Shown: positions 1 to 27,865 of the stretch, piece by piece
Layout: each line of letters starts with the position of its first letter
Numbering within the stretch: the stretch's first letter is position 1
DNA from: Candidatus Eiseniibacteriota bacterium
Lineage (GTDB): Bacteria > ARS69
NCBI GenBank assembly: GCA_052390515.1
Contig: JBQTGV010000094.1
Location: 1-28,823, forward strand
Direction of reading: 5' to 3'
Length of the DNA: 28,823 nucleotides
Notes under the pieces: model-generated
Seen by the model: the letters and a program-made list of their open reading frames with translations, nothing else
Told to the model about the DNA's origin: nothing
The model's database searches: none
Position numbers and translations under genes: made by a program

Positions 1-726
1 GGCACGAGGAGCCACGCCGATCGGATCGGAGCCGGGTGCAGACTGCGCCGATGTCCGCGCCGATCTCGTCCCGAGGAAACGCGCGACGAAGTACGCGCCA
101 TAGACCAGCCCGGAGTAGTACGCGATCTGCACGTGTCCGGCGAGCACCTGCAGCGCCATCACCCCGCCGAGCCACACGAGTGATCGTCGCGCGGCGGGGC
201 CGTCACCCGCGTCCGCACACCGCCGGCACCGCTCGATGCACCACAGTCCGAGCGGCAGCCAGCACGCGACGTTCACCATGCTCAGATGCTTGAGGTGCGA
301 GATCAGGAAGCCCGAATAGGCGATGGCCACGGCGGCGAGCATCGCGGCGGGAGTCGAGGCGACGATCCGACGCGCGAAGAGGTACATGCCCACGGCGGCG
401 ACCACGAGCGTGAGCAGCATCGTCACGTTCAGGGCCGCGTACGGAGGGAGCAGCCCGAAGAGCAGGAGATTCGGCGGATAGCAGACGCCCGCCTCGGGGC
501 GCGCCAGCAGAGGGAAGCCTCCGTAGACCGGCGGGTACCACAGGGGCAGCTCGCCGCCCTTCAGCGCTTCGCCCAGGAAGAAGCGGGAGGGGAACGCGTC
601 GTTCATGAGATCGCTGGTGAAGATGTCGTCGGTGATGACGACGCCCTGCATGGTCGTCAGGGGCCAGAACGGAACGAGCACGAGCAGCACGAGGGCGACG
701 ACCGGAGCGGTGTGGGCATGCTGCAT
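1..726 (-). CDS. YfhO-like / GT-C-type polytopic membrane protein, N-terminal part (runs off left edge)
   Basis: Not in the ORF track because it has no stop in the window. Manual translation: MQHAHTAPVVALVLLVLVPFWPL...SDLMNDAFPSRFFLGEALKGGELPLWYPPVYGGFPLLARPEAGVCYPPNLL...LQVLAGHVQIAYY. The 'GELPLW-P---G-PLLA' and 'AGH-Q' patterns are typical of YfhO-like proteins. Alternative GTG start at 735. Confidence 0.75.
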   Translation of the reverse strand, partial: MQHAHTAPVVALVLLVLVPFWPLTTMQGVVITDDIFTSDLMNDAFPSRFFLGEALKGGELPLWYPPVYGGFPLLARPEAGVCYPPNLLLFGLLPPYAALNVTMLLTLVVAAVGMYLFARRIVASTPAAMLAAVAIAYSGFLISHLKHLSMVNVACWLPLGLWCIERCRRCADAGDGPAARRSLVWLGGVMALQVLAGHVQIAYYSGLVYGAYFVARFLGTRSARTSAQSAPGSDPIGVAPRA

Positions 727-4172: not shown

Positions 4173-5267
4173 CTAGCGGAGAACGACGATCTGGCGGGAT
4201 CGGCTGCCCGACGCGGATTCGACCCGCGCGAAGTACACGCCCGCGGGAACGAGCGCTCCGCCCGCGTCCCGCGTGTCCCACGCCACGATGCCGGTGCCGT
4301 CGGACTCGCCGTCGTACAGGGCCCGAACGGTGCGTCCGGCCACGTCGTGGATCGTCACGACGAACCGGCCCGCTTCGGGCAGGCGGTACAGCAGCGCGAC
4401 GTTCCCGTGCGGCGCCGGGTTCGGCGCGGCCACGAGGGAGAGCCCCGCCGCTCCCGCGGGCAGCGGACCCACGCCGGTAGGCGGACTGATGGGCAGGATC
4501 TGCCCGCGGATCTCACCGTTGCCGTCGAACGTCGAGTGGATGTTCACGTAGGTGAGACCGGCGAGGATGCTCGCCTCGTCCGCCGCGAGGTAGTTCCAGA
4601 CGCCGATCTTGGGATTGCCGAGCACCAGAGCGTGCTTGACGCCTGCGTTGACGCCGATGGCGCCGAAGCCGTGGATGTGCGCGGCGTTCTCCGCGCCCGT
4701 GAGCGCGCCGAAGCGGATCTCGTAGCTCAGCGTGTTCGCGGCGGTGTCGATGTCGAACACCCCGATGCCCTGGCCGCCCGGCGAGGGATTCGGCGGGACC
4801 TCCTGCAGCGGGTCGATGATGGCCACCATGTCCGTGGCGGGCTCGACCACGATCTGGCCGCGGATCTCGCCACCGCCGTGCACGGTCGAGTGGATGTTGA
4901 AGTACGTGAGGCCGGCCATGATGTCGGCTTCCTGGGCCTCGAGGTAATTCCACGCGCCGATCTTCGGACTCCCCGCAGGAAGCCCGTGCAGCACGCCAGC
5001 GCCGCCCACACCGGACGGCGCGAAGCCGTGGATGTGCGCGGCCGTCTCCGGTCCGAGCAGCCCGGTGAAAACCACGTGGTAGAAGAGCGTGGTTGTGCCC
5101 GTGTCGAGCAGGGCGTGGCCCAGCCCGGTCGCGGGGGTCGCGACGACCGGGACCTCCTGGAGGCCGTCGATCGACGCTGCCTGCATGTGAGCGAGTCCGA
5201 ATGCCGGCCCGGACATCGCCAGCGGGACCAGGGCGGCCAGCGGCGCCGCGAAGCTTCTCCTCAGCAT
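4173..5267 (-). CDS. Secreted protein with two CHRD domains and a C-terminal FlgD-Ig-like domain
   Basis: GGAGG RBS before ATG 5267 and a signal peptide. Two repeats of QEVP...AAHIHG...Y-NIHST---GEIRGQI. C-terminus APNP...IHDVAGRTVRAL...WDTRDAGG-LVPAGVYF. Confidence 0.88.
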   Translation of the reverse strand: MLRRSFAAPLAALVPLAMSGPAFGLAHMQAASIDGLQEVPVVATPATGLGHALLDTGTTTLFYHVVFTGLLGPETAAHIHGFAPSGVGGAGVLHGLPAGSPKIGAWNYLEAQEADIMAGLTYFNIHSTVHGGGEIRGQIVVEPATDMVAIIDPLQEVPPNPSPGGQGIGVFDIDTAANTLSYEIRFGALTGAENAAHIHGFGAIGVNAGVKHALVLGNPKIGVWNYLAADEASILAGLTYVNIHSTFDGNGEIRGQILPISPPTGVGPLPAGAAGLSLVAAPNPAPHGNVALLYRLPEAGRFVVTIHDVAGRTVRALYDGESDGTGIVAWDTRDAGGALVPAGVYFARVESASGSRSRQIVVLR

Positions 5268-5387
5268 GGTTCCTCCGTTCCTGGAGCCCGGGAGGCGCGT
5301 CCCGGAGCGCGTGCGGTGACCCACAGAGACGCTCGCCCGCGCCCTGATACCGCTCGACAGGCCGGCAGGGCTCTTCGAAACTCGCGG

Positions 5388-6854
5388 GTGTCGCTGCCTC
5401 GGCTGATTGTACCGCTTGCCATTGCCGCGTACGCCGCGGCCCTTCTCGCCGCGGGCGGACGGATCGCCGTGTTCGAGGACGAGGCGATCATCGTGGCGAA
5501 CGCCGGAGAGCGGGATCCAAGCGAGGTCCTGGCCGGCTACTTCCAGGCGAAAGCCGTCCTGGAGCACCCCCCGCTCTACGACCTGTTCCTCGGGGCCTGG
5601 ATCCGCGCCGCCGACCCCTCGCCGGCCATGCTCCGCGCGCCCTCGATCCTCGCCTGGGGGGTGGGGGTCTGGCTGCTCGGGCTCTGCGCCCGGCGGGTCC
5701 TGGGGCGCGCGTGGCCGACAGTGCTCATCGCGCTGGCGTGGCCGCCCGGGCCCTTCTTCGCCGTTCCGGCCCACTGGGCCTGCTTCGCCTTCCTGACGGA
5801 GGCCGGGCTGCTGTGGGCCTGGTTCACTTGGCGCGCGACCGGCCGTCCGCGGGACCTGACGGCCGCCGTGGCGTTCGGGGTGGCGATGCTCTGGACCTCC
5901 TGGTTCGGCTGGGCCGTCGTCGCCGCGCTGGCGGCCTTCGCCCTGGCGGGACGCCCCCGGCCGCCTCTCGCGCCGCTCGGGCTGGCGCTCGGCGTGCTGG
6001 TGGCCGCGTTCCTGCCGCTCGCGCCGGAGTTCGTGCGGGAGCTCGGCGCGGGGACGGACCTGGCGCGCGGGCCCGGCGCCGTCCTGGCCGACGCCGCGTA
6101 TCACGGCTGGGCGCTTCTCGCCGGCGAAGCGGTAGCGCCCTGGACCGTCCCGGCGATTCTCGTGGCCGCCGGGATGGCCGGGCTTGCCGCCGCCGCCTGG
6201 CGGGCGCGGGCCGTGCGAAGGCCGCTGGCGCTCCTCGGTGTGCTTTTCGCCGCCGGCGTCGTCTCCGGCATCCTCAACGCGAAGCGCCTCGTCATCTTCG
6301 CCCCGTTCCTGCTGCTCTCGCTCGGCGCCATCGTCGAGGGCACCACCCGGCGGCGGCTCGCCCTCGGATCCCTCGCCGTCGTGTTCGGCACCGCCTGGAT
6401 CGGTGCGCTCACCGGATCGTGGTGGGGGACGTGGCGATACGTCGAGCCCTGGGGCGAAGTCGTCGCGGACGCGTTCGCCCGCGCCCGGCCCGGTGACGTC
6501 GTGCTCTGCAACCACCCCTCGTTCTGGTTCCGCGCGCGCTTCGAGCGGGGCTGGACCGACTGGGGGCGCGTGCTTCCCGAGGCGGCCTTCGACGACGGCG
6601 GCATCGTCTGCTCCCCGCTGGTCGGCTGGCGCGACGTCGTCGAGCGGCGGAACCACGTCATCCACGTCCGGACCGTCGTGAACCCGGATCGAAGCGAGGA
6701 GCAGCGCTTGCTCGAAGAGCACCTGGCAGGGGAGTTCACGCTCTCGACGCCGCGGCGCTGGATCGAGGACCGCGCGTCCGGCCTGAAGAACCGGTTCGTG
6801 GGAAACCAGCCGCGGTGGCGGATCGAGATCACCGAGTGGACGCGCGGCGGGTAG
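5388..6854 (+). CDS. Polytopic membrane glycosyltransferase (GT-C / ArnT-PMT-like)
   Basis: FEDEA and EHPPLYDL..LRAPS motifs after the first TM helix, and many TM segments. Start GTG 5388 inferred. Confidence 0.7.
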   Translation: MSLPRLIVPLAIAAYAAALLAAGGRIAVFEDEAIIVANAGERDPSEVLAGYFQAKAVLEHPPLYDLFLGAWIRAADPSPAMLRAPSILAWGVGVWLLGLCARRVLGRAWPTVLIALAWPPGPFFAVPAHWACFAFLTEAGLLWAWFTWRATGRPRDLTAAVAFGVAMLWTSWFGWAVVAALAAFALAGRPRPPLAPLGLALGVLVAAFLPLAPEFVRELGAGTDLARGPGAVLADAAYHGWALLAGEAVAPWTVPAILVAAGMAGLAAAAWRARAVRRPLALLGVLFAAGVVSGILNAKRLVIFAPFLLLSLGAIVEGTTRRRLALGSLAVVFGTAWIGALTGSWWGTWRYVEPWGEVVADAFARARPGDVVLCNHPSFWFRARFERGWTDWGRVLPEAAFDDGGIVCSPLVGWRDVVERRNHVIHVRTVVNPDRSEEQRLLEEHLAGEFTLSTPRRWIEDRASGLKNRFVGNQPRWRIEITEWTRGG

Positions 6855-6925
6855 CGTGCTCGGAGCGCGGAACGCCGGCCGCGCCGAGTCGGGCCCACGC
6901 GCCGAGGCAACGGCCACAACGCGAA

Positions 6926-6955
6926 GCGCCCCGGGCTCCTTCGAGTCCGGGGCGC
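6926..6955 (-). terminator. Hairpin terminator after peptide 1, also convergent with the GT-C gene
   Basis: GCGCCCCGGACTC-GAAG-GAGCCCGGGGCGC-TT; conserved after peptides 2 and 3. Confidence 0.65.
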
Positions 6956-6981
6956 CGCCGCCTCTTCCTGCCGCCTCGTTC

Positions 6982-7152
6982 TTAGCGGTTCCGGACGCTG
7001 ATCGACTGAACCGCCAGGTCGCCGAAGTGGTCGCCGCTCTCGCCCGGGTCGCCGATCGGCTGCGCGGGAGTTCCCGTCCCACCGACCACCTTCACCAGTT
7101 CCTCGTTCGCCAGGGCCTTCACCGTCGTCTCGTTCAGGTTCTTGCGCGTCAT
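6982..7152 (-). CDS. Double-glycine-leader precursor peptide 1 (56 aa)
   Basis: MTRKNLNETTVKALANEELVKVVGG|TGTPAQPIGDPGESGDHFGDLAVQSISVRNR. GAGGAG RBS and an L-x2-EEL-x2-V-x-GG leader. Confidence 0.85.
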   Translation of the reverse strand: MTRKNLNETTVKALANEELVKVVGGTGTPAQPIGDPGESGDHFGDLAVQSISVRNR

Positions 7153-7216
7153 TTTCGGATCTCCTCTGGTTTGGTTTCTCGTTCGCCTTTGCAACCCTGT
7201 TCGATGCACGCCTCCG

Positions 7217-7245
7217 TACGCGGGGCGGCTCGGGGTTCTCGGGGG
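7217..7245 (-). promoter_or_regulatory. Putative ECF promoter motif A, copy 1
   Basis: CCCCCGAGAAC-N14-CGTA; five copies with identical spacing in the window. Confidence 0.75.
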
Positions 7246-7339
7246 GGTGTGCCCGGGGGCGCCGCATCCGCAGGACGGCCGAAGGGGAGGCGACCGGCGC
7301 CGGGACGGGCGACAGCTCCTTGTAGCTGGTGGTCTCGTC

Positions 7340-7831
7340 CTAGCTGGCCGTCTCGTCCAGGGCAGTCTCGATCGCCCGGCGCAGCTTGGCGTCCTTGGGG
7401 TCGAGGCGGGGGTCGAAGCGGGAGATGACCCGGCCGTCGCGGGCGACGAGGTACTTCGTGAAGTTCCAGCTGGGGTCGGGGTGATCCCGGGTGAGGAAAC
7501 GGTAGATCTCGTCCTTCCCGCGGCCCTTCACTTTGCGCTTCGCGAAGAGTGGGAAGCTCACGGCGTAGCGGGAGGAGCAGAAGGCGCGGATCTCTTCCGG
7601 ACTACCGGGCTCCTGGCCACCGAAGTCGTTGCTGGGGAAGCCGAGCACCGTGAAACCCCTCGGCGCAAGTTCTCCGTGCAGTGCCTCGAGGGCGGTGTAC
7701 TGCGGTGTCAGACCGCAGCGGCTGGCCAGGTTGACGACGAGGCAGACCCGCCCGGCGAATGTCGAGAGGGGCGCCGGGGAGCCTTCCAGGGTGTCGGTCG
7801 TGAAATCGAAGAACGACGGCGGCGCGGGCAA
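7340..7831 (-). CDS. gpx: Glutathione peroxidase family protein (Cys type)
   Basis: VVNLASRCGLTPQY, LGFPSNDFGGQEPG and WNFTKYLV motifs. TTG start 7831 after GGAGG. Catalytic codon is TGC, not Sec. Confidence 0.93.
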   Translation of the reverse strand: MPAPPSFFDFTTDTLEGSPAPLSTFAGRVCLVVNLASRCGLTPQYTALEALHGELAPRGFTVLGFPSNDFGGQEPGSPEEIRAFCSSRYAVSFPLFAKRKVKGRGKDEIYRFLTRDHPDPSWNFTKYLVARDGRVISRFDPRLDPKDAKLRRAIETALDETAS

Positions 7832-7908
7832 GGGCGAACCTCCGGACGGCGCAGAATAACCCGAACGCGTCGGCGCCGCGAAGCCGGGGGAACCCCCCGG
7901 ACGGCAAA

Positions 7909-7938
7909 GCGCCCCGGACCCTTTCGAGCCCAGGGCGC
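7909..7938 (-). terminator. Hairpin terminator after peptide 2
   Basis: GCGCCCTGGGCTC-GAAA-GGGTCCGGGGCGC-TTT. Confidence 0.65.
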
Positions 7939-7962
7939 CGGCGCCAGCCCGCTCGGTCTGCC

Positions 7963-8130
7963 TTAGCGGCCCGGCTTGGAGAACGCCTGCCACGCCATCT
8001 CGCCGAAGGCCTCGCCGGTCTCGGCCGGGTCGCCGATCGGCTGCTCGGGGGTGCCCGTCCCGCCGACCACCTTCGCCAGTTCCTCGTTCGCCAGGGCCTT
8101 TACCGTCTCGTTCAGGTTCTTGCGCGTCAT
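7963..8130 (-). CDS. Double-glycine-leader precursor peptide 2 (55 aa)
   Basis: MTRKNLNETVKALANEELAKVVGG|TGTPEQPIGDPAETGEAFGEMAWQAFSKPGR; GAGGAG RBS. Confidence 0.85.
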   Translation of the reverse strand: MTRKNLNETVKALANEELAKVVGGTGTPEQPIGDPAETGEAFGEMAWQAFSKPGR

Positions 8131-8194
8131 TTGAGTCTCTCCTCTGGTTTGGTTTCTCGTTCGCCTTTGCAACCCTGTTCGATGCACGCCTCCG

Positions 8195-8223
8195 TACGGT
8201 GGCCGGGCGGGGGTTCTCGGGGG
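8195..8223 (-). promoter_or_regulatory. Putative ECF promoter motif A, copy 2
   Basis: CCCCCGAGAAC-CCCCGCCCGGCCAC-CGTA. Confidence 0.75.
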
Positions 8224-8273
8224 GGTCGGGGCGAGGGAAGTTCGACGTCCTGGGAGGCCGGCCCCAACGCGAA

Positions 8274-8304
8274 GCGCCCCGGGCTCCTTCGAGTCCCGGG
8301 GCGC
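8274..8304 (-). terminator. Hairpin terminator after peptide 3
   Basis: GCGCCCCGGGACTC-GAAG-GAGCCCGGGGCGC-TT. Confidence 0.65.
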
Positions 8305-8330
8305 CTCCGCCTCTTCCTGCCCCCTCGTTC

Positions 8331-8495
8331 CTAGCGGTTCCGGACGCTGATCGACTGGACCGCCAGGTCGCCGAAGTGGTCGCCGCTCTCGCCCGGGTCG
8401 CCGATCGGCTGCGCGGGGGTTCCCGTCCCGCCGACCACCTTCGCCAGTTCCTCGCTCGCCAGGGCCTTCACCGTCTCGAACCGATTGCGCGTCAT
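8331..8495 (-). CDS. Double-glycine-leader precursor peptide 3 (54 aa)
   Basis: MTRNRFETVKALASEELAKVVGG|TGTPAQPIGDPGESGDHFGDLAVQSISVRNR. Core identical to peptide 1 with only synonymous DNA changes. Confidence 0.85.
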   Translation of the reverse strand: MTRNRFETVKALASEELAKVVGGTGTPAQPIGDPGESGDHFGDLAVQSISVRNR

Positions 8496-8559
8496 TTTCG
8501 GATCTCCTCTGGTTTGGTTTCTCGTTCGCCCTTGCATCCCTGTTCGATGCACGCCTCCG

Positions 8560-8588
8560 TACGGGGGGGAGCTCGGGGTTCTCGGGGG
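8560..8588 (-). promoter_or_regulatory. Putative ECF promoter motif A, copy 3
   Basis: CCCCCGAGAAC-CCCGAGCTCCCCCC-CGTA. Confidence 0.75.
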
Positions 8589-8663
8589 AGATGCAGCGCT
8601 GGCAGACAACGGCGTCGCCTCTGGGGCCGCGCGATGGAGGACATCCTTCGGCTACACTGGTCG

Positions 8664-9983
8664 TGGACAATCGTCCTAGGAGGTCGCGTCGACGCCGCCA
8701 GCTATCCCCCCGGAAACTCGACTCTGGGCGCGGCTGCGCTGGCGGCGGGCCCTCTGGGCTGCCGTGCTTCTCGCTGCGGCTGGTCTCTTTGTGAGTTGGA
8801 TGTTGATGCCGATTCCGGCGAGCTTACGGGCACAGGGGAGTGTCACGTGGTTTCGGGCGAGCACATCGCGCGCAGTCGCGCCAGCCAACGTCGCGGGCGC
8901 GCCGGCCATCCGTGCGGACAGTGTTTGCATGACGGTGTTTGGTCCCATAGAAGCGTTGGTGTTTGCGGACTCAGGGTGGAGCACTCAGGCGGCTGACATT
9001 TCATTCCTAGGCACGAGCCTAGGGGCAGCCAATGACTCGACGTTCCCAGCTGACATCGAGTTTGACGGGGCGAGGGTGGACGAGCACCCGTGTCGCTACG
9101 CGGCGGCGTTGCGCGCGACGCTCTCTTCGCGGGAGATATGGCGTTCTGGCTCCACCGCACTGACACGCTGCATCTAATCGGGCCACAGGTGACACCGACG
9201 GTGGATGTGGTTGATCCGACGCTCCTCTGGGCATTGCCGTACGAAGCCGAACTGATTGTCGCATGGACTGAGCGAGGCGTCCCCGCTGCCGTGTCCGCGC
9301 GGTTACCCGACGAGTTCTTACTGCTTTCACCTGAGGCCGTACTGGCGAAGCCAGGTCACAGCCTGGCTATTGCGGGTGCAGGAACGGCGTGCTTCCGGTT
9401 CACACCCCAAGCAGACTCTACGGACGAACAGCGCACTACGCTCGTGTTGAACATCCCAGAGCTGGAGTTCAACACGTTCGGTGGACAGGTACGCGTGGGC
9501 GCTGTGCTCGCCGAGGGTGTATTCGGGGGGAACGCGGTCCTGACCCAGAAGCTGTATGTCGTTCCTTATGCGGGAACAGAGCCATTCTCCTTCGCGGTGT
9601 CGCAGGTCTCGGGCGATAGTCTCGCGGTTCAGTGGCTAGCCCGCACTGGTGGAGCCAGGGAAGTGTGCGCCTATGGATCGGGACTTGTCGCGCTTGTGGG
9701 GACAGAGCAACACACCCTCGGCGCCCTGGACGACATCGAGTTCATTGGCGATCTCGTCTTCTCCGTCGTATGGGAGGCGCCGCAGCTCGCGCAGTTGAGC
9801 GTGGTTGGTCGCGTTAGCTCATGTAAGCGGCATGGTCAGCAGATACTCTCGTCCAGGTGGGGGGCGTTGTCTGACGAGGTGCGTGGTGGGATTGCGGGTG
9901 GAGTGGCCGCTGTTTTGCTCACCGTGGTGATAGGGTCGCTCCGCGGCCGCACTCTGCTCGACTGGTTTGTACGACGCGTGTGA
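8664..9983 (+). pseudogene. Lower-GC hypothetical membrane-anchored protein, apparently frameshifted (ORF pieces 8764-9177 and 9090-9983)
   Basis: Visibly more A/T-rich than the flanks. An N-terminal TM (LWAAVLLAAAGLFVSWML) and a C-terminal TM (GIAGGVAAVLLTVVIG) lie in different frames, and the first TM frame has no start codon upstream of it. Confidence 0.45.
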
Positions 9984-10122
9984 CGGTTGCAGAGTGCCAA
10001 TCTGGAGCAACGTTGCACGTCTGTGAGCCCCGTAAGGTGAGCGCCAGGAATGCCCCGGTCTACAGGTCCGACTCACGCCGAGTTCGACCCGCGGCTCCCT
10101 CAATGTCTGGGGTGCGATGCGC

Positions 10123-10845
10123 TCACTCCGGCACGCGCAACCTCAAGGAGAACCACCCCGCGGTGACGTCCTCGAACTCGGCAAGGAAGTGAGAGGCTCC
10201 CTCGACCGCTTCGAGACGCGCGGTCCGCTCCGGCGCGTCCTTCCCGGTGATGAGCACGACCTCGCCGCCGGGCTTGCCCTCGTCGACGATCACCGAGATC
10301 GAGCGCCGCCGCGCGTCGACCACCACTTCGCCGACCTTGCGCCCGCCGATCCGCAGGTCCAGCCGCGCCACGGCGCTCGTCCGCGCATCGAGCCGACCGG
10401 CTTCCTCCAGCGCGGCCAGCGCCGCGCGCTCGTCGCCCGAGGCGCAGTGGGCCGACGCGCGCTCCGCGAGACGAGCCGCTTCGCCCTCGTCCCCGGGCGC
10501 GCCGACGCCGCCGTACGCCGGCCGGAACGCCGCCTCGAACCCGCCGAGTCCGTGCGCGGTCTCCGCCACGCGGTCGAGAGCCGCCGTCGCCAGGCGCTTC
10601 GCGCCGTCGAGCATCCCGCGGACGACCACGTCCATCGCCCCCGGCACTGGCGCCATCCGCGCGGTCATCTCGTCGACGAACCCGGACCAGGAACCCTCGA
10701 AGTCGCTGCGGATCCGCCGCACCGCCGCGTACCGCTGCGCGCAGGCGCCGCAGCCGTCGAGGTGCGAGAACAGCCCCTCCGCCTCGGCCGGGCTCGTTCG
10801 CCCGGCGGCGAACGTGATCAGATCTTCCTGGGTGGGGTGCCGCAT
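10123..10845 (-). CDS. Zinc-finger (zf-HC2/ZAS) anti-sigma factor, predicted soluble
   Basis: MRHPTQEDL...HLDGCGAC (H-x3-C-x2-C), no clear TM helix, GGAGAGG RBS, directly downstream of the sigma gene. Confidence 0.82.
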   Translation of the reverse strand: MRHPTQEDLITFAAGRTSPAEAEGLFSHLDGCGACAQRYAAVRRIRSDFEGSWSGFVDEMTARMAPVPGAMDVVVRGMLDGAKRLATAALDRVAETAHGLGGFEAAFRPAYGGVGAPGDEGEAARLAERASAHCASGDERAALAALEEAGRLDARTSAVARLDLRIGGRKVGEVVVDARRRSISVIVDEGKPGGEVVLITGKDAPERTARLEAVEGASHFLAEFEDVTAGWFSLRLRVPE

Positions 10846-10904
10846 GGTTCCTCTCCGCGTGTGGGGCGCCCCGGCCGTGCCGGGCGGCGCCCTCGTCTGC
10901 CCCC

Positions 10905-11870
10905 TTACGCGCCGCCCTCCCGGGTTCTCGGGGGGTCCGGAAGCGGCAGCCAGCGGGTGGAGGCCGGATCCTCGAATACCTTCCGGATCCGGTTCTTCAC
11001 CGAGTGGGTCCAGTCGGAGACCGATCGCCGCGGATCCTCACCGAAGTACTCCTGGAGCTGTGCCGATCCCACGCTCCTCTCCGCCACCATCCGCCAGCGC
11101 TCGGCCGAGGCCGGGTCCCGGGCGAAGAGTTCCCGTCCGGTCATGGCCAGCCGCCCGTCCAGCGGCTGCCTCACCCTCGCCAGGTACTCGGGATCCAGCC
11201 GCCCGGAGACGGCCAGGTCCTCCAGCATCCCGTTCGCCGCCGGCTCGAGATCCTGCGGCCCGACCTCCCGCACGACCCGGTCCGGATCCCCGGTGATCGG
11301 GACCTTCACCGTCACGGCATCGCCCTTCCGCTGGTCCTTGCCCCAGACGAGGATGCTGTACCCGAAGGTGACCTGCTGGTGAGGATAGCCGCCCCAGCGC
11401 AGGAACGTCTCCAGCAGCTCGAGGAAGACCCGCGAGGGGCCCTCCGCCCCGGGGTCGGCGAAGCGGCCTTCGCCCATGGCCCGGCGAAAGGCCAGCGGCA
11501 GGTCCTTCATCTCGAGGGCCGACAGCTCCGTCGTCTCCGCGTCGTCTCCCTCGTCGTCCAGGGAGCCCACGAGATCACGCCGGCCGTAGAGGAAGCGCTT
11601 CACGACGCTTCGCGCCAGACCCTTGGCGAACGTGACGAACGCGTACGACGGGTCGTACTTCTCAAGGCGCCGGAACAGGTAGATGCGGACTTCCTGCAGC
11701 ACCTCGTCGACTTCGACGTGAGGCGCGCTGCGCAGCGCTCCGCGCAGCAGGTTCGTCAGGTCCCGCTCGACCGCCGCCCAGAGCCGGTCGAACGCGCGGG
11801 AATCCCCGGCCACGACCTTGCGCACGAGCTCGGCTTCCGCTGGCGAGGCCTGCGTCGTCTCGCTCGTCAC
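10905..11870 (-). CDS. Atypical ECF-type sigma-70 factor (321 aa)
   Basis: Region 2-like: ELVRKVVAGDSRAFDRL...VDEVLQEV...LEKYDPSYAFVTF. C-terminal HTH-like SAQLQEYFGEDPRRSVSDWTHSVKNRIRKVF. GGAGG RBS before GTG. Confidence 0.75.
   Translation of the reverse strand: MTSETTQASPAEAELVRKVVAGDSRAFDRLWAAVERDLTNLLRGALRSAPHVEVDEVLQEVRIYLFRRLEKYDPSYAFVTFAKGLARSVVKRFLYGRRDLVGSLDDEGDDAETTELSALEMKDLPLAFRRAMGEGRFADPGAEGPSRVFLELLETFLRWGGYPHQQVTFGYSILVWGKDQRKGDAVTVKVPITGDPDRVVREVGPQDLEPAANGMLEDLAVSGRLDPEYLARVRQPLDGRLAMTGRELFARDPASAERWRMVAERSVGSAQLQEYFGEDPRRSVSDWTHSVKNRIRKVFEDPASTRWLPLPDPPRTREGGA
10906..10934 (-). promoter_or_regulatory. Putative ECF promoter motif A, copy 4, inside the sigma 3' end and upstream of the anti-sigma
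   Basis: CCCCCGAGAAC-CCGGGAGGGCGGCG-CGTA; the CGTA overlaps the sigma TAA stop. Confidence 0.72.
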
Positions 11871-11900
11871 GTCGGCCGCCCCTCCGTGCGGGCTTCCACG

Positions 11901-13379
11901 TCAGCCCCTCTCCGCGGGCGCGTCGATGCGCCGCGACATCGTCACGTCCCGCGGGCGGTTCCACTCACGGTCCAGCCGCGCGACGAGCGCCGATGCGTCG
12001 CAGCCGGAGGCCTCCAGCACCTTGCGCACGTTGCGGCTCGGGCTGTCCAGCACGGCCCAGAGCACGTCGCCTTCCTCGACGACCGCCGAGCCGCGGTTGC
12101 GCGCGTTGGACCGAGCCGTCTCCCGCGTGACGCGGTGGCTCGCTGTCTCTTCGCCCGGACCCTGGTGGTGCTCCTGCGGCAGGCTCTTCTCGATGATGTT
12201 GCAGACCGCCTGCGTCCGGCTCCCGCAGGACTCCAGCATGCGATGGATGAGCGGCCCCTCCGCCGCGCACAGACCGTACAGGATGTGCAGCGTCTCGCGG
12301 GAGCGTGCGCCGCAGCGCTCCCGGAGCGCCTCGGCGGCCCAGTACGCCGCCTGCACCGTGGCTTCGTTGGCCGGCGAGAGCGGGCGAACGCCGCCGCGCG
12401 GCGGACGGGACGCGCGCACGTCCACGGCGTGCACGGGGCCGGCGCGCCACATCCGGGCGCGCGCCGCGGCCACGGCCTCGTCGAACGTGAAGCGATGATC
12501 GCCCGCGCAGACGCTCGTGCTCTCGAGGGTCAGGATCTCGCCGGCGGCCGCGCGGGCGGCAAGGTCGAGGCCGTCGGCCAGCAGCGGGCGATGTCGTTCG
12601 CCCGCGTCCGCCCAGGCGCCGATCCACGCGTGCGTCGGAGCGCCGGACGTCTCTCCCTCGAAGAGGATCAGCGGACCGAGCCCCACGGACTCGAGACACG
12701 CGGCGAAGAGCAGCGTCAGGTCGAGGCAGTTGCCGCGGCCGCGGCGTGCGCCCGGCTCGCCGGCGATCTCTTGCGGCGAACGCACCGTCTGGTGCGACGT
12801 GCCGCACTCCGGGTCGAGGGTGACGCGAGGGGTCTCGTAGGCGATCTCGTGCGCCGACGCGAGGAGCTCGTGCAGCGCGCGCATCACCGCGGCGACGGCC
12901 TCGCGGGAGCCGCCGCGGGCGATCTCCGGGAGCGAACCGGGGCCCGCGTCCGCCACGGTGCGGAAGACCACGTCGTCGCCGGACGAGGCATGGGCGGCAA
13001 CCAGGCGCCGCGCCTCGGGGTGGTGCGGCCACTCGCGCGCGGGAAGCAGCGCCACCGGAACCCGCGCGACCGGCGTCCCCTCGAGGCGCACCTCGAGACC
13101 GGCGGCCATGCGGCGCGGGAGCGCTTCGAGGCGGTCGGTCGTCGTGGGAGAGAGCGGCGAAGGCACGACCGGGTTTCCGGCGCGCACCGCGAGCGTCCAG
13201 TCGAGCTCGGGGATCCGCAGCTCGGCGAGCGCAGGAGGCCGCTGCCCACCGGACGGCGCATGCAGCGCCGTCACGGGCGACATTCCCGCCAGCGCCTCGG
13301 CGTACCCGTACGCAGGCAGGTACTCGACCACGAGCCCGGCGGCTCCGCTGGGATGGACGACGGTCGTTTTCACCCGCAC
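11901..13379 (-). CDS. Transglutaminase/papain-like Cys-His domain fused to a C-terminal ClpN-like repeat domain
   Basis: RGNCLDLTLLFAACLESVGL-PL...THAWIGAW...LESTS catalytic-type motif. C-terminal AYWAAEALR...ETLHILYGL...ARSNARNRGSAVVEEGDVLWAVL resembles Clp N-terminal repeats. Confidence 0.7.
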   Translation of the reverse strand: MRVKTTVVHPSGAAGLVVEYLPAYGYAEALAGMSPVTALHAPSGGQRPPALAELRIPELDWTLAVRAGNPVVPSPLSPTTTDRLEALPRRMAAGLEVRLEGTPVARVPVALLPAREWPHHPEARRLVAAHASSGDDVVFRTVADAGPGSLPEIARGGSREAVAAVMRALHELLASAHEIAYETPRVTLDPECGTSHQTVRSPQEIAGEPGARRGRGNCLDLTLLFAACLESVGLGPLILFEGETSGAPTHAWIGAWADAGERHRPLLADGLDLAARAAAGEILTLESTSVCAGDHRFTFDEAVAAARARMWRAGPVHAVDVRASRPPRGGVRPLSPANEATVQAAYWAAEALRERCGARSRETLHILYGLCAAEGPLIHRMLESCGSRTQAVCNIIEKSLPQEHHQGPGEETASHRVTRETARSNARNRGSAVVEEGDVLWAVLDSPSRNVRKVLEASGCDASALVARLDREWNRPRDVTMSRRIDAPAERG

Positions 13380-13522
13380 CTCGCTGCGGGGGGAATCCCG
13401 GATCGGACCGCGAGAGTGTATCGCGTTCCGCGCCGCCCTTCTCGACCTTGTTTGGATTCTCGCCTCCGGCTAGTCTCGGCCCGATCCGCCTCCTCGCCTC
13501 GTTCCAGGAGTCACGTCCGCCG

Positions 13523-14110
13523 ATGACCGTGCTCTCGGCCGCGCTGCTTCTCTTCCTGGTGCTGGATCCCTTCGGGAACATCCCGTTCTACCTGTCCGCG
13601 TTGCAGCAGGTACCGCCGGCGCGGCAGAGGCGGGTCGTCGTCCGCGAGCTGATCTTCGCCCTCGTGGCGCTGGTGGTGTTCCTGTTCGGCGGGCGCTTCG
13701 TTCTGGGGCTGCTCTCGATCTCCGAGCCGGCGCTCACGACGGCGGGCGGCATCATCCTCTTCCTGATCGCCATCCGCATGATCTTCCCGCCGGCTCACTC
13801 CGGGAGCGAGACCGTCGAGGGCGAGCCGTTCATCTTCCCGCTGGCCGTGCCATACGTGGCCGGGCCGTCGGCGCTCGCGGCGGTGATGTTCCTCACCAGT
13901 CGTGAACCGGAGCGATGGCCGGAGTGGCTGGCGGCGGTCTTCGCCGCGTGGCTGGCCACGGGGGTCATCCTGTTCCTGGCCAGCGCGCTCCGTCGCCGGC
14001 TCGGCCAGCGGGGTCTCATCGCCGCGGAGCGGCTGATGGGCATGGTCCTCGTCACGATGGCCGTGCAGATGCTGATGGGGGGGCTCCACGACTTCTGGGT
14101 CGATTCCTGA
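13523..14110 (+). CDS. MarC-family integral membrane protein
   Basis: LLFLVLDPFGNIP...AGGIILFLIAIRM...PLAVPYVAGP...ERLMGMVL; AGGAG RBS. Confidence 0.92.
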   Translation: MTVLSAALLLFLVLDPFGNIPFYLSALQQVPPARQRRVVVRELIFALVALVVFLFGGRFVLGLLSISEPALTTAGGIILFLIAIRMIFPPAHSGSETVEGEPFIFPLAVPYVAGPSALAAVMFLTSREPERWPEWLAAVFAAWLATGVILFLASALRRRLGQRGLIAAERLMGMVLVTMAVQMLMGGLHDFWVDS

Positions 14111-14132
14111 GCCGGGCTCTGAGGCCCGGCTC
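14109..14132. terminator. Hairpin between the convergent MarC-family gene and peptide 4
   Basis: GAGCCGGGC-TCTGAG-GCCCGGCTC, perfect 9-bp stem. Confidence 0.5.
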
Positions 14133-14194
14133 GTCTCCTCTTCGATTCCGCTTCGCCTGCCCGCTTCCTGCTCTGCTCTCTCTTCGCCGGTTGC

Positions 14195-14362
14195 TTACTC
14201 GCTGACGGCAACGCTGCTGCGCAGCGGGATGATGTCGCCGGCTTGGTCGTCCAGCAGACGGCTCTCGCGCAGCGGGACCATGTCGGCGGATCCGCCGGTG
14301 ACGTGGGTCAGCTCGGCTTCGGTCAGGTTCCTCATGCTCGCCTTCATCGCCTGGGAGTTCAT
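14195..14362 (-). CDS. Double-glycine-leader precursor peptide 4 (55 aa)
   Basis: MNSQAMKASMRNLTEAELTHVTGG|SADMVPLRESRLLDDQAGDIIPLRSSVAVSE. AAGGAG RBS and the same upstream motif. Confidence 0.8.
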   Translation of the reverse strand: MNSQAMKASMRNLTEAELTHVTGGSADMVPLRESRLLDDQAGDIIPLRSSVAVSE

Positions 14363-14421
14363 CGTCGTGCTCCTTCCGGTTCGGGGTTCGGGTTGTGACT
14401 CGCTTTCGAGCCTCGACCCGG

Positions 14422-14450
14422 TACGCGGGTGGGGGCCGGGTTCTCGGGGG
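14422..14450 (-). promoter_or_regulatory. Putative ECF promoter motif A, copy 5
   Basis: CCCCCGAGAAC-CCGGCCCCCACCCG-CGTA. Confidence 0.75.
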
Positions 14451-24516: not shown

Positions 24517-25593
24517 TCAAGGATGGGGCCGGGGGAATCCGCCGTCCCCCGCAGTTCCGGCCAGGAGGGCCGCCAGGGAAGCCCGGAAGGGCTGCCGGGC
24601 GATGCCCCGCTCCGTGATGATGGCGGCCACGAGGGCGGCGGGGGTCACGTCGAACGCCGGATTCAGGGCACCGACCCCGGGCGGGGCCACGCGCATCCCC
24701 CGCGGCTCGGTGACCTCCTCTGGGGCCCTCTGCTCGATGGGGATCTCCCGGCCCGAGGCGAGGGAGAGATCCAAGGTGGAGGTGGGGGCCGCAACATAAA
24801 ATGGCACGCCGTGCTCCCGGGCCATCACCGCCAGGGGGTAGGTCCCGATCTTGTTGGCCACGTCGCCGTTCGCGGCGATCCGGTCCGCCCCGACGACGAT
24901 GCAATCCACCCCCCCGCGGGACAGGACCCAGCCGGCGGCGTTGTCGCAGAGGATGGTGACCGGGACGCCCATCCGCTGGCACTCCCAGGCGGTGAGTCGG
25001 GAGCCCTGCAGGAGCGGGCGGGTCTCGTCGGAGAGCACCCGGATGTCCTTCCCCGCCTCGCGGGCGGCGTAGATGACGGCGAGGGCCGTGCCCTTGCCGG
25101 CCGTGGCCAGTGCCCCGGCGTTGCAGTGCGTCAGCACGGTGCCGCTCGCCGGGAGAAGCTCCGCCCCGAACCGGCCGAGTGCCGCGCAGGCTTCCACGTC
25201 CTCGCGGTCGATTCGCCGGGCCTCCTCGAGCAAGGCGGCTCGCTGCTCGGCGACCGGCCGGCCTCGGACCCGGTCCAGAGCCTGCCGCATCCGCTCGACG
25301 CCCCATCCGAGGTTCACCGCCGTCGGCCGCGCGTGGGCGATGCGGTCGAGGTCTGGCAAGAGCTTGGCCCGGAAGGCGTCCGGCGCGGTCTCGGGAAGAA
25401 CGTGCGCGGCGAGCGCCGCAGCGTACGCTCCGGCCACTCCGATCGCCGGGGCTCCGCGGACGGAAAGGCGCTGGATGGCGGCGATCACCTCGTCCGGCGT
25501 CCGGCAGAACAGGTACTCCTCCCGCTCGGGGAGCCGGGTCTGGTCCAGGAGGACGACCGCACCGTCGTCCCATTTGACCGTGAAGAAGCTCAT
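24517..25593 (-). CDS. mtnA: S-methyl-5-thioribose-1-phosphate isomerase
   Basis: LLDQTRLP, VRGAPAIG, RPTAVNL, LTHCNAGALAT, ETRPLLQGSRLTAWE, NKIGTY. Confidence 0.97.
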   Translation of the reverse strand: MSFFTVKWDDGAVVLLDQTRLPEREEYLFCRTPDEVIAAIQRLSVRGAPAIGVAGAYAAALAAHVLPETAPDAFRAKLLPDLDRIAHARPTAVNLGWGVERMRQALDRVRGRPVAEQRAALLEEARRIDREDVEACAALGRFGAELLPASGTVLTHCNAGALATAGKGTALAVIYAAREAGKDIRVLSDETRPLLQGSRLTAWECQRMGVPVTILCDNAAGWVLSRGGVDCIVVGADRIAANGDVANKIGTYPLAVMAREHGVPFYVAAPTSTLDLSLASGREIPIEQRAPEEVTEPRGMRVAPPGVGALNPAFDVTPAALVAAIITERGIARQPFRASLAALLAGTAGDGGFPRPHP

Positions 25594-25670
25594 GGGGCGA
25601 ATCCTACCGGCGATGCGCCGGGCGGACCACGGCCATCCGTTGATCCGCCCGCCCTCCCGTGCGACGCTCC

Positions 25671-25696
25671 GGCACAGTCGCGGTGCCTCCCGCATA
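25671..25696 (+). promoter_or_regulatory. Putative ECF promoter motif B, autoregulatory copy
   Basis: GGCACA-N14-CGCATA; matches 27866-27891. Confidence 0.55.
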
Positions 25697-25711
25697 CCTA
25701 GGAGAGGGCGA

Positions 25712-26296
25712 TTGACCTCGGTGGGGTCCGGGCGGGAGACGCTGTCGGCGGAGGATCTCGCGCGGGTCGCGGCACGGGATCCGGAGGCGCTGGGTCGCTT
25801 CTTCGACGCCTGGGTGGATCGCGTCTTCGCGCTCGCCTACCGGCTGCTGGGCAACCGGACCGCCGCGGAGGACGTGTCGCAGGAGGTGTTCCTCAAGATC
25901 CACCGCGCGATCGACCGCCTGGACCCCCAGCGCGATCCCGGTCCCTGGGTCACGACGATCACCTGCAACGCCTGCCGGGAGTACTGGCGCAGTTCGGCAC
26001 AGCGCGCCGCGAGGAGCTCGGTATCCGTCGACGACCTGGAGGACTGGCAGGATGCGCATCCCCGGAGCGGGGATTCGCCCGAGGAACAGGTGCTCCGCGC
26101 GGAGCGCGAGGCGCGCGTGCAGCGAGCGCTCCTCGAGCTTCCCCCCGAGCTGCGTGAGGTCGTCGTGCTTCACGACTGGCGCGGCATGAAGCACCGGGAG
26201 ATCGCCGAGACCGTCGGCGCGACGCACGACGCCGTTCGCAAGAGGTACTCGCGCGCGCTGGCCGAGCTCGCCCGGCTGCTGAAGGACGACGCATGA
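25712..26296 (+). CDS. ECF sigma-70 factor
   Basis: AAEDVSQEVFLKI...W---I--N-CR; LPPELREVVVLHDWRGMKHREIAETVG. TTG start after AGGAG. Confidence 0.92.
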   Translation: MTSVGSGRETLSAEDLARVAARDPEALGRFFDAWVDRVFALAYRLLGNRTAAEDVSQEVFLKIHRAIDRLDPQRDPGPWVTTITCNACREYWRSSAQRAARSSVSVDDLEDWQDAHPRSGDSPEEQVLRAEREARVQRALLELPPELREVVVLHDWRGMKHREIAETVGATHDAVRKRYSRALAELARLLKDDA

Positions 26297-27102
26297 GCCA
26301 CGATCCGGATCCGACGGCGGCGTACTCGAGCCCCGAGGAGCGGCGCGCCGCGGAGGCGGTGCACGCGCTCGGCGAGGCGCGGATCGATGCCGCGTTCCGG
26401 GCGCGGTTGCGCGGGCACTTCGTCGCCGGATCGTTCGCCGCGGCCACCGAAGAGCCGGTGCGCCGCTCCGCGCCGATCGTCCCCCTCTTCGCCTTCGCCG
26501 CGGCGGCGTCGGCCGCGCTCCTGGTCTGGCTCGGCAGCGCTCCGCCCCGCTGGACCTTCGCCGGGGCTGCGGGCGCGGGCGAGCTGCGCATCGACGGTCG
26601 GGTCGTGGACGCCGCGGATCCCGGCGCGGTGGGCGCGGCGCTCGCGCCGGGCGCCCTGCTCGTCACGTCAGGCAGCCTCGAACTCGACCTCGTCCTGGCC
26701 AATCGACTGACCCTCGAGGTCACCCCCGGAACCGAGCTCACGCTCCCCGACACGCCGCGCCGCTGGTTCGGGGGCCACGCTTCCTGCGAGATCGTCCGCG
26801 GCGACGCACGCTTCGCCACGGGCCGGGAGATGCCCGGGCGCCGGTTCGTCGTGCAGTCACCTCTGGCCGCGATCGAGGTGACCGGAACGAGGTTCGCGGT
26901 GATCGCCGAGCCGGACGGTGCGTGCGTCTGCGTCTGCGTCCTCGACGGCTCGGTGTCGGTGACCGATCCTGACGGAACGACCCACTCCGTGACCGGCGGA
27001 CTCCGGCGTACCCTGTTCCGCGAGGCGGACCCGGACGTGGGCGAGATGCGTGCCGACGAGCGGGTGAAGCTCGCGGAACTGGCGGATCCGGACCTGAACT
27101 GA
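26293..27102 (+). CDS. FecR-domain membrane anti-sigma factor
   Basis: Single TM (LFAFAAAASAALLVWL), then G-ARF...F-VQSP-A-IEVTGTRFAV...VLDGSVSV. ATGA overlap with the sigma gene. Confidence 0.88.
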   Translation: MSHDPDPTAAYSSPEERRAAEAVHALGEARIDAAFRARLRGHFVAGSFAAATEEPVRRSAPIVPLFAFAAAASAALLVWLGSAPPRWTFAGAAGAGELRIDGRVVDAADPGAVGAALAPGALLVTSGSLELDLVLANRLTLEVTPGTELTLPDTPRRWFGGHASCEIVRGDARFATGREMPGRRFVVQSPLAAIEVTGTRFAVIAEPDGACVCVCVLDGSVSVTDPDGTTHSVTGGLRRTLFREADPDVGEMRADERVKLAELADPDLN

Positions 27103-27114
27103 GAGGAGGGCGCG

Positions 27115-27807
27115 GTCTTCTTCCCCATCGGCGACGACAACTCCACCCGGCGCTCTCTGCCCTTCGTCACCTGGACGCTGATCGCGGCGAACGCGGCGGT
27201 CTACGCCTGGCAGGTCGGGCATCCGGAGTTCACGTACGGATACAGCGTCGTCCCGCGGGAGATCACGTCGGGCGAAGACCTGGCCGGCATCGTGCGGCTC
27301 GGCGACGCGGGCTTGCAGCTCTTCCCCGGACCGACGCCGGTCTACTGGACCATCCTCTGGGCGATGTTCATGCACGGCGGCTGGTCGCACATCGGCGGCA
27401 ACATGCTCTACCTGTGGATCTTCGGCGACAACGTCGAGGACCGCATGGGACACGGGAGGTTCCTGGCCTTCTATCTGCTCTGCGGCGTGCTGGCCAGCGC
27501 CGCCCACATCTTCTTCGGCCCGACCTCGGTGATTCCCTCGCTCGGCGCTTCCGGCGCGATCGCCGGCGTGCTGGGCGCATACCTCGTGCTCTTCCCGCGC
27601 CAAGGCGTCCGCGTGCTCACCTACGGCCGGATCACCGAGATGCCCGCGCTGATCGTGATCGGCCTCTGGGGCGTCCTGCAGTTCCTCAACGGGTTCGGCT
27701 CGCTGGCGAACGTCGGGGAGACCGGCGGCGTCGCCTACATGGCGCACGTCGGTGGGTTCGTCGCCGGGCTCGTGCTGGTCTCGCTGTTCCGGAAGCGCGC
27801 CCGCTGA
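27115..27807 (+). CDS. Rhomboid-family intramembrane serine protease (start codon anomalous)
   Basis: FPIGDDN N-terminus, MFMHGGWSHIGGNMLYLWIFGDNVED, GASGA, AHVGG. No ATG/GTG/TTG at the expected start. Confidence 0.9.
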   Translation, partial: VFFPIGDDNSTRRSLPFVTWTLIAANAAVYAWQVGHPEFTYGYSVVPREITSGEDLAGIVRLGDAGLQLFPGPTPVYWTILWAMFMHGGWSHIGGNMLYLWIFGDNVEDRMGHGRFLAFYLLCGVLASAAHIFFGPTSVIPSLGASGAIAGVLGAYLVLFPRQGVRVLTYGRITEMPALIVIGLWGVLQFLNGFGSLANVGETGGVAYMAHVGGFVAGLVLVSLFRKRAR

Positions 27808-27865
27808 GCTGCGGGAGGCGCCCGCTCAACGCGGCGAAGCGTGCCCCGCGTCCGGACCGCGGCGA

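Follow-up and report, generated by a model that had tools for sequence, protein, structure and literature searches.

A Conserved Transglutaminase-Like/Clp N-Domain Protein Linked to an ECF-Type Sigma/Zinc Anti-Sigma Pair, with a Promoter-Like Motif Upstream of Double-Glycine Leader Peptide Genes

Introduction

Which protein passes a signal to a soluble anti-sigma factor, and which genes does the freed sigma factor then read? Pairs of extracytoplasmic function (ECF) sigma and anti-sigma factors are among the commonest signalling devices of bacteria, and to our knowledge the input step of the soluble anti-sigma factors is known in a few cases only. The question is raised by a 28,823-nucleotide stretch of DNA (contig JBQTGV010000094.1 of assembly GCA_052390515.1, Candidatus Eiseniibacteriota bacterium), hereafter called the window, whose positions serve as coordinates throughout. 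The window carries a minus-strand operon of three genes encoding a protein with a transglutaminase-like domain and a Clp N-domain (TG-ClpN), an atypical ECF-type sigma factor, and a soluble ChrR-type zinc anti-sigma factor, and genes for small peptides with double-glycine (GG) leaders lie on both flanks of this operon. The host draft genome is 4.27 Mb in size, with 223 contigs and 70% G+C, and the window is a chromosomal stretch in which the core genes rpsB-tsf-pyrH-frr-uppS-cdsA lie within a few kilobases of the peptide and operon region.

We regard the trio as a so far undescribed form of ECF sigma/anti-sigma signalling, one that has a third, conserved component. As a whole, we consider it rather probable that the locus is a three-protein regulatory module together with a local regulon that includes the GG peptides.

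Results

Conservation of the Three-Gene Operon

The genes of the operon are separated by intergenic gaps of 30 and 59 bases and are listed here in the order of the minus strand.

11901..13379, minus strand: TG-ClpN, 492 aa, with a beta-sandwich (residues 1-111), a transglutaminase-like domain (about 111-336) and a Clp N-domain (336-479)
10905..11870, minus strand: atypical ECF-type sigma factor, 321 aa; sigma-2 spans about 10-95, the linker at 97-145 is disordered, and a C-terminal domain of 160 residues is conserved
10123..10845, minus strand: soluble zinc anti-sigma factor, 240 aa, with a ChrR-type N-terminal domain, a conserved mid motif (about P109-V114) and a C-terminal domain with an invariant motif (V214-E223)

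We compared the operon with about 15 distinct related loci of other uncultured bacteria, down to about 30% identity. These loci come from species genomes (L002-L004) and metagenomes (L005-L012), together with L040-L044 and L056-L057; note that L008, L009 and L010 are one sequence and that L044 is the same as L012. An anti-sigma homologue follows the sigma gene in 14 of the 15 loci, and TG-ClpN is encoded within the fetched stretch in 11 of them, the other four ending at a contig end on at least one side. The TG-ClpN gene lies 2.6-6 kb from the sigma/anti-sigma pair in L003, L004 and L040, and stands after the anti-sigma gene in L041 and L056. The trio was also found in a distant genome (G534). 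When 400 other genomes were sampled with a TG-ClpN profile, nine matched; one of these has two full-length copies with sigma and anti-sigma neighbours, and six match only via the N-terminal part of open reading frames (ORFs) of 1,149-2,167 aa. Of 201 genomes sampled from the phylum of L002, 8 carried the sigma family. On the other hand, searches with single sequences returned little: TG-ClpN had no match in 60 other genomes and none in the contig collection, where P0121 likewise found no relative. Within the host's own phylum (11 other genomes, one family) the TG-ClpN-family profile, the sigma profile not having been searched there, matched only through its Clp N-domain part, in ORFs of 683-929 aa that we take to be ClpB/ClpC-type chaperones. 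PADLOC gave no match for the three operon proteins or for the neighbouring 297-aa ORF.

The Three Operon Proteins

The structural model of TG-ClpN has a predicted local distance difference test (pLDDT) score of 92.2. Its region from about 111 to 336 matches in fold the putative protease 3kd4_B (Z 10.0, root-mean-square deviation (rmsd) 3.2, 141 residues aligned), TglA (9crn_A, Z 8.4), and PeiW, factor XIII, PNGase and LapG (Z 7.1-7.9, with LapG at 7.1), and the protein has no match to Pfam Transglut_core at E <= 0.1. Q197, C218, D220, H250 and T288 are invariant in all 33 aligned sequences and E286 is nearly so; judging from the alignment, D220 or E286 could be the third catalytic residue. Residues 336-479 form a double four-helix fold with Z scores of 12.8-17.6 to 17 N-domains of Clp, Hsp104 and ClpV proteins, and the profile of this domain matches the N-terminal domain (NTD) of ClpC (5hbn_A) with E 1.9e-08. 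Pfam Clp_N is above its cut-off in the relative P0052 (24.7 bits vs. 20.7), with no match in the TG-ClpN of the window. The family comprises 682 representative clusters at E <= 0.001, many of whose members have an N-terminal FHA domain and some of which are fused to Ser/Thr kinases or AAA ATPases. No signal peptide and no ABC domain were seen in TG-ClpN. The N-terminal module is shared with ProA, the protein of the Prometheus anti-phage system, since TG-ClpN matches positions 83-322 of the 1903-position NCBIfam ProA model (E 3.6e-26). With only that part of the model matched, and with 91 bits against a cut-off of 1500, an assignment of TG-ClpN as ProA itself was rejected.

The anti-sigma factor was aligned in 10 sequences, the homologue of locus L043, which has no zinc motif, being left out. 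H3, H28, C32 and C35, that is, H-x3-C-x2-C with its upstream ligand, are invariant in 10 of 10, as is the motif V214-E223. Against Pfam zf-HC2 the protein scores 21.2 bits, where the cut-off is 22.2, and six of the ten family members reach E <= 0.01 (best value, 3.3e-08). The profile matches DdvA (8rlz_A) with E 0.0031 and ChrR (2q1z_B) with E 0.0048 over residues 3-45 (ChrR 6-48), and the CHAT-domain chain 8rot_B with E 0.063. The protein has no hydrophobic segment (maximum Kyte-Doolittle mean over 19 residues, 0.83), and its C-terminal domain has no Pfam match.

The sigma factor matches Pfam Sigma70_r2 with E 3.6e-05 (23.9 bits, cut-off 24). Its sigma-2 domain superposes on SigW (Z 12.9, rmsd 2.3, 92 residues aligned), on SigK (Z 12.1), and on region 2 of Escherichia coli sigmaE (4lup_A, rmsd 2.1 over 89 columns). 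Among the 50 full-length homologues, the C-terminal domain is highly conserved. AlgU aligns to the model with 155 residues over 10..303 (Z 11.9; the rmsd of 18.6 comes from domain placement) and Sigma-H (3mzy_A) aligns to 141..303 (Z 5.3); Foldseek returned no match for the model at E <= 0.001. The final long helix is patterned like the recognition helix of sigma-4, and from the model we infer that the C-terminal domain may be a sigma-4 that an insertion of about 95 residues splits in two.

These results bear out the parts that the original prediction had listed for the operon. The proposed fusion of a transglutaminase/papain-like domain with ClpN is seen as a transglutaminase fold plus a Clp N-domain on the model, the ECF sigma is recognised by its ECF-type sigma-2 domain, and the soluble zinc-binding anti-sigma by its H-x3-C-x2-C motif and the lack of a hydrophobic segment.

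Predicted Complex of TG-ClpN with the Anti-Sigma Factor

A complex of TG-ClpN and the anti-sigma factor was predicted with a score of 0.66, the best of three controls reaching 0.00. Of 80 solved complexes, 58 reach the mark for this score, as do 2 of 110 mismatched pairs; these counts are only rough, own alignments having been used. At least 41% of the contacts agree between runs, and the partners have a pLDDT of at least 73. The confident contacts join V214-E223 and residues 155-188 of the anti-sigma factor to loops 258-268 and 323-330 in the transglutaminase-like domain of TG-ClpN, and both sides of the predicted interface are conserved. Since the synteny is conserved and the docking is predicted, TG-ClpN is the likely input partner of the anti-sigma factor, rather than a leader peptidase. 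A link of the Cys-His protein to the sigma/anti-sigma pair had been proposed, with a co-fold of protease and anti-sigma as a check, and both the synteny and the predicted complex agree with this.

The prediction supports binding of the anti-sigma factor by TG-ClpN, not its cleavage: C218 and H250 are outside the predicted interface, and no anti-sigma segment is placed in the active site. As a tentative extension, which we judge fairly unlikely, TG-ClpN, with its DUF4011-type domain shared with Prometheus, would be a new cytoplasmic anti-sigma protease/sensor that, on an intracellular cue, cuts the docked anti-sigma factor and so sets free the split-sigma-4 sigma factor to read an exchangeable cargo, here the secreted GG peptides, the whole acting as a danger-triggered competition or alarm switch. 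Candidate cues would be infection, proteotoxic stress, or a phospho-signal, the last suggested by the relatives fused to FHA domains or kinases. There is also a minor but real chance that TG-ClpN controls the anti-sigma factor without cutting it, either as a partner-switching sequestrator or, through its ClpC-like N-domain, as an adaptor or decoy toward a Clp unfoldase-protease. In that case, the anti-sigma factor (or the sigma factor) would be delivered to Clp or competed for, and the Cys-His site would serve for deamidation or sensing. The position of the interface beside the catalytic residues, not on them, fits such control, as does the full ClpC/ClpB-type N-domain, whose best Z is 17.6 and whose profile matches a ClpC NTD bound to phospho-arginine at E 1.9e-08; the FHA, Ser/Thr kinase and AAA ATPase domains of relatives suggest links to phospho-signalling and unfoldases. 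However, the invariance of Q197, C218, D220, H250 and T288 in 33 of 33 sequences points to chemistry at the site. The same signature is kept in ProA-like proteins: among the seven loci matched through the N-terminal part only (L047-L053), five could be aligned by tblastn, and all five retain it.

A Promoter-Like Motif Shared by the Peptide Genes and the Anti-Sigma Gene

We next consider which genes the sigma factor may read. The motif CCCCGAGAACCC-N13-CGTA is found upstream of the four GG-leader peptide genes, named pepA to pepD, and of the anti-sigma gene.

6982..7152, minus strand: pepA, GG-leader peptide of 56 aa (leader 25, core 31)
7217..7244, minus strand: motif before pepA (pattern matches and paralogue alignment)
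7963..8130, minus strand: pepB, GG-leader peptide of 55 aa with a divergent core
8195..8222, minus strand: motif before pepB (pattern matches and paralogue alignment)
8331..8495, minus strand: pepC, GG-leader peptide of 54 aa, core identical to that of pepA
8560..8587, minus strand: motif before pepC (pattern matches and paralogue alignment)
10906..10933, minus strand: motif before the anti-sigma gene, overlapping the last sigma codons and the stop; its place is conserved in related loci
14195..14362, minus strand: pepD, GG-leader peptide of 55 aa, core unrelated to those of pepA-C
14422..14449, minus strand: motif before pepD (pattern matches)

The pattern CCGAGAACC-N-CGTA matched the window five times, always on the minus strand, against 0.00 expected, so that the claim of one motif before the four peptide genes and the anti-sigma gene held. 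CCCCGAGAACCC with at most one mismatch returned the same five sites, where 0.52 were expected. In the whole genome, GAGAACC-N12-14-CGTA has nine matches, and the C-rich extension is present in only the five window sites; all five extended copies of the 4.27-Mb draft genome therefore fall within 7.3 kb around the operon. No copy was found upstream of the TG-ClpN-sigma genes. ECF promoters have an AAC-type -35 and a CGT-type -10 consensus. Held against this general consensus, the sigma factor has both a co-encoded anti-sigma factor and a target motif with an AAC-type -35 and a CGT-type -10, as is used to recognise an ECF factor. In addition, the upstream similarity of pepA, pepB and pepC starts exactly at the -35, and the -35, the -10 and a 60-base leader are invariant while the 13-base spacer has diverged, which is the pattern expected of a promoter.

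The same kind of site, CGAGAAC(C/T/G)-N12-13-(C/G)GTA, precedes the anti-sigma gene in nine related loci (L002, L003, L004, L005, L007, L008, L012, L040 and L042), and the sigma factors of the window and of these loci are 32-59% identical. Relative to the sigma frame, the motif lies in phase 0, 1 or 2, and in L040 it lies after the sigma stop codon; because it occurs in all three reading phases, it is a signal at the DNA level. Read from sequence, the motif at the sigma 3' end is most likely the sigma factor's own promoter, which would drive the anti-sigma gene in a negative feedback. A tightened pattern gave 13 sites in eight related loci, where 0.3 would be expected and none of 200 simulations gave more than 2. 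The extra copies precede the following genes.

L008: 46-residue ORF without GG
L003: 147-residue membrane protein
L004, two copies: 356-residue lipoprotein-like ORF, and a secreted protein
L040: 1,296-residue secreted protein
L042: 270-residue ORF

The ORF in L008 (9112-9252, minus strand, the same in L009 and L010) lies 92 bases after the second motif copy and is oriented convergently to the anti-sigma gene; in this case another lineage has a small-peptide cargo of a different kind. Homologues of pepA-D were found by tblastn in none of the 15 related loci, and the generic GG-leader regular expression found no GG peptide in any of them. Since the GG peptides are missing there and the extra motif copies precede other genes, the GG peptides appear to be lineage-specific cargo. 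As far as these comparisons go, the conserved element is the regulatory trio with its putative promoter, and the GG peptides are cargo of the host lineage. The proposal of a sigma-peptide regulon thus stood in part: the motif is ECF-promoter-like and tied to the sigma family in the window and nine loci, but GG peptides do not define the system. An absence of the GG peptides or of the motif from operon homologues had been named beforehand as evidence against the regulon, and the homologues were found to keep the motif and to lack the peptides.

It is very unlikely, in our view, that another ECF sigma factor reads the motif, or that the motif is a duplication remnant without promoter function, the peptide genes being unrelated to the operon. 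The upstream similarity of pepA-C could be inherited, as these genes are recent paralogues. However, the sites of pepD and of the anti-sigma gene have nothing but the motif in common with the upstream regions of pepA-C, the motif accompanies the sigma and anti-sigma genes in 10 loci and in three reading phases, and all five extended copies in the genome are clustered around the operon.

The GG-Leader Peptides

The four peptide genes of the original prediction are present at the positions that it had given. Their leaders have 23-25 residues and end in GG, and their cores have 31 residues each, a charge of -2 to -3, and no Cys. The leader ends, ...EEL(V/A)KVVGG in pepA-C and ...AELTHVTGG in pepD, follow the GG-leader pattern (hydrophobic residues at -4/-7, acidic residues upstream), and a generic GG-leader regular expression recovered exactly pepA-D from the window. 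The coding signature, with G+C at third codon positions (GC3) of 0.89-0.95 and at second positions (GC2) of 0.44-0.49, is like that of genuine genes of this genome. The assignment to the GG-peptide class rests on the leader pattern, because the curated models stay below their cut-offs (TIGR01847, 13.4-13.5 bits vs. 15.7; ComC, 16 vs. 20.4). In the protein atlas no lead reached 0.9; the weaker leads include clusters of ComC and of type-A lantibiotics. The peptide family has 11 clusters in a collection of 5.8 billion proteins, some of which are the window's own, and its alignment shows strong conservation in the leader and in the first half of the core. Note that locus L045, the sole locus returned by a contig scan with the peptide alignment, was rejected as a peptide relative, the match being a stretch of a longer frame.

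pepA, pepB and pepC are paralogues with 73-93% identity, and pepD is 24% identical to pepA. The three paralogues differ by in-frame indels of 3 and 6 bases; all have the ribosome-binding site GAGGAG, and in all of them the stop codon is followed by a G+C-rich hairpin.

6924..6955, minus strand: G+C-rich hairpin followed by TT after pepA, with the same hairpin after pepB and pepC (sequence reading and paralogue alignment)

A terminator scan that needs five T did not call this hairpin, and at the peptide genes consensus scans found neither sigma-70 promoters nor T-rich terminators. The 5' leader of pepA-C (7153-7215, 8131-8193 and 8496-8558, minus strand) is conserved above the level of the promoter spacer and of the coding region, and is not unusually structured (z +0.97); Rfam had no match anywhere in the window. 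The metagenomic homologues P0205, P0208, P0210 and P0211 are called with N-terminal extensions that resemble the translated leader, so that the conservation of this leader seems to be at the DNA level. Between pepB and pepA lies a glutathione peroxidase gene (7340-7993, minus strand; Pfam GSHPx, E 2.2e-34) that has no motif copy of its own; read-through from pepB would bring this redox enzyme under the zinc anti-sigma system.

Enzymes with papain and transglutaminase folds, such as the C39 peptidases, cut GG leaders in other systems. In the window, no C39 peptidase ABC exporter and no modification or immunity genes were found near the peptides, and family scans of the window ORFs recognised no peptide-modifying enzyme. 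On the other hand, contig C11 of the same genome encodes a C39 peptidase ABC exporter (735-aa ORF, 120.7 bits) with an adjoining HlyD-like ORF, the two together at 25240-28385 on the minus strand, and a second, partial C39 match lies on contig C129. No obvious GG-peptide genes stand beside the C11 exporter and its HlyD-like partner, which resemble an orphan exporter with substrates encoded elsewhere. The C11 exporter is more likely than TG-ClpN to be the leader peptidase.

The idea that the Cys-His enzyme matures or cross-links the peptides, in the place of C39 as leader peptidase or else as a transglutaminase, so that the locus would be a cluster like those of bacteriocins or of ribosomally synthesised and post-translationally modified peptides (RiPPs) under ECF control, draws on the general habit of such folds of cutting GG leaders, on the peptide genes flanking the operon, and on a weak match of pepD to an ATP-grasp RiPP target model (E 0.015, below the cut-off), but is highly improbable in view of the 15 loci without GG peptides, the TG-ClpN without signal peptide or ABC domain, the canonical exporter on C11, the window without a recognised modifying enzyme, and the complex prediction that puts TG-ClpN on the anti-sigma factor.

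Discussion

The reading that we favour, a regulatory trio with a local regulon, would work as follows. By homology, the sigma factor, with ECF-type sigma-2 and split sigma-4, would be held inactive by the soluble ChrR-type zinc anti-sigma factor, whose C-terminal domain is predicted to dock on the transglutaminase-like domain of TG-ClpN. TG-ClpN would be the signal input and, on some cue, would inactivate the anti-sigma factor; the invariant Cys-His pair would favour cleavage as the means. The freed sigma factor, to judge by conservation, would read promoters with CGAGAAC(C/T)C, 12-13 bases and CGTA. One of these, in the sigma 3' end, would drive the anti-sigma gene and so close a negative feedback, and the others would precede cargo genes that vary by genome, here the four GG-leader peptide genes. 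The anionic 31-residue cores would probably be cut and exported by the C39 exporter of contig C11 with its HlyD-like partner, and would serve outside the cell as signals or competition peptides.

Several observations weigh against this scheme. With respect to the sigma factor, the score for TIGR02937 is below the family score (29.7 bits vs. 42.9) and covers residues 26-111 only, no Pfam region-4 match was obtained at E <= 0.1, and the sigma-4 reading depends on a model and on loose structural alignments. The catalytic residues off the predicted interface speak against cleavage in particular. Regarding the motif, the two most distant sigma homologues, L041 and L043, have no match to it, the extra sites in related loci were found by the motif pattern itself, and the host genome may encode other ECF sigma factors able to read it. 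The related loci leave out the contigs of the closest sigma relatives (P0001 and P0002) and of the peptide relatives (P0202-P0211). A 768-aa protein in which a TG domain is joined to a Sigma70_r2 domain (P0066) speaks for the link between the two families, but fills a contig of 2433 bases and may be a gene-calling artefact. Finally, the anti-sigma gene beside the sigma gene of L043 encodes a protein without the H-x3-C-x2-C zinc motif; L043 is a zinc-free variant of the trio. In that locus (G113:C8, 6216-11622), two TG-like matches and two anti-sigma-like genes on opposite strands were seen.

How does the trio compare with known systems? Alternative sigma factors turn on genes for leader-bearing secreted peptides in MibX-MibW of microbisporicin and in the streptococcal ComX/ComC/ComAB and Blp circuits, and the GG leaders of ComC and Blp peptides are cut by C39 ABC exporters. 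The likeness to our locus is a sigma factor switching on leader-peptide genes; unlike in those circuits, the peptides here are lineage-specific cargo with anionic, Cys-free cores, and the window is without modification, immunity and exporter genes.

SigmaE-ChrR of Rhodobacter sphaeroides (2q1z, 2z2s) shares with the trio an ECF-type sigma-2, a soluble anti-sigma factor with an N-terminal H...H-x3-C-x2-C whose spacing matches H3/H28/C32/C35, and a separate anti-sigma C-terminal domain presumed to receive the signal. In contrast to that pair, the C-terminal domain here has no Pfam match and, by prediction, docks on a third protein, the sigma factor has an enlarged C-terminal domain, and the putative sigma-dependent promoter would drive the anti-sigma gene only, not the sigma gene. 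DdvS-DdvA of Myxococcus xanthus is reported to be an ECF sigma factor with a CHAT-protease anti-sigma factor that controls a CBASS-CRISPR island (PMC11506125; PDB 8rlz, 8rot). It resembles the trio in its zinc-type anti-sigma N-domain, its module of cysteine-protease fold, and its local cargo island; DdvA is a transmembrane protein with the protease fused to it, whereas here the anti-sigma factor is soluble and the transglutaminase-fold domain is on a separate protein with a Clp N-domain.

ProA is a single-protein anti-phage system (NCBIfam NF058533; PMC13700489). It has the beta-sandwich and the transglutaminase-like region in common with TG-ClpN, and the ProA-like ORFs that keep the five-residue signature have 1,943-2,167 aa. 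ProA continues with helicase and nuclease domains and DUF3320 and acts alone, whereas TG-ClpN has a Clp N-domain at its C-terminal end and belongs with a sigma/anti-sigma pair. The Clp N-domain itself has the double four-helix fold of the ClpC NTD (5hbn), mycobacterial ClpC2 (8b9o) and plant ClpT1 (4y0b), with Z 15.9-17.6; unlike these proteins, TG-ClpN has its N-domain fused to a transglutaminase-like domain, with no AAA+ module. A literature search found no description of the TG-ClpN/sigma/anti-sigma trio. The main text of the ECF re-classification (PMC7826278) contains neither 'transglutaminase' nor 'cysteine protease', and its supplements may list a matching ECF group.

The locus offers a compact, conserved module with a predicted docking surface of invariant residues, a defined motif, and a short list of targets. 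TG-ClpN belongs to a family that is widespread yet uncharacterised, and serves here as the third component of a sigma/anti-sigma pair, which gives a first functional context to the transglutaminase-like module that the Prometheus defence protein likewise carries in its N-terminal part. In addition, a sigma factor with an enlarged C-terminal domain and a well-defined promoter could be used as an orthogonal expression part.

Neighbouring Genes

Between pepC and the anti-sigma gene, the stretch 8600-10100 has a G+C content of only 62-67% and does not show the GC3 signature of the genome. It holds the 297-aa ORF (9090-9983, plus strand), which has a C-terminal hydrophobic helix and no family match, and an ORF at 8764-9177 that overlaps it from upstream and whose start resembles a signal peptide. 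This stretch may be a foreign or frameshifted gene wedged in at this position. Upstream in the window, 4173-5300 (minus strand) encodes a secreted protein with two CHRD domains and a FlgD-Ig/type IX secretion C-terminal sorting tail, and a 518-aa membrane ORF without a family match lies on the opposite strand at 5298-6854. At the other end, a gene for a FecR-domain protein followed by a rhomboid protease gene occupies 26293-27807 (plus strand), and these two may be part of another signalling pair of the anti-sigma type.

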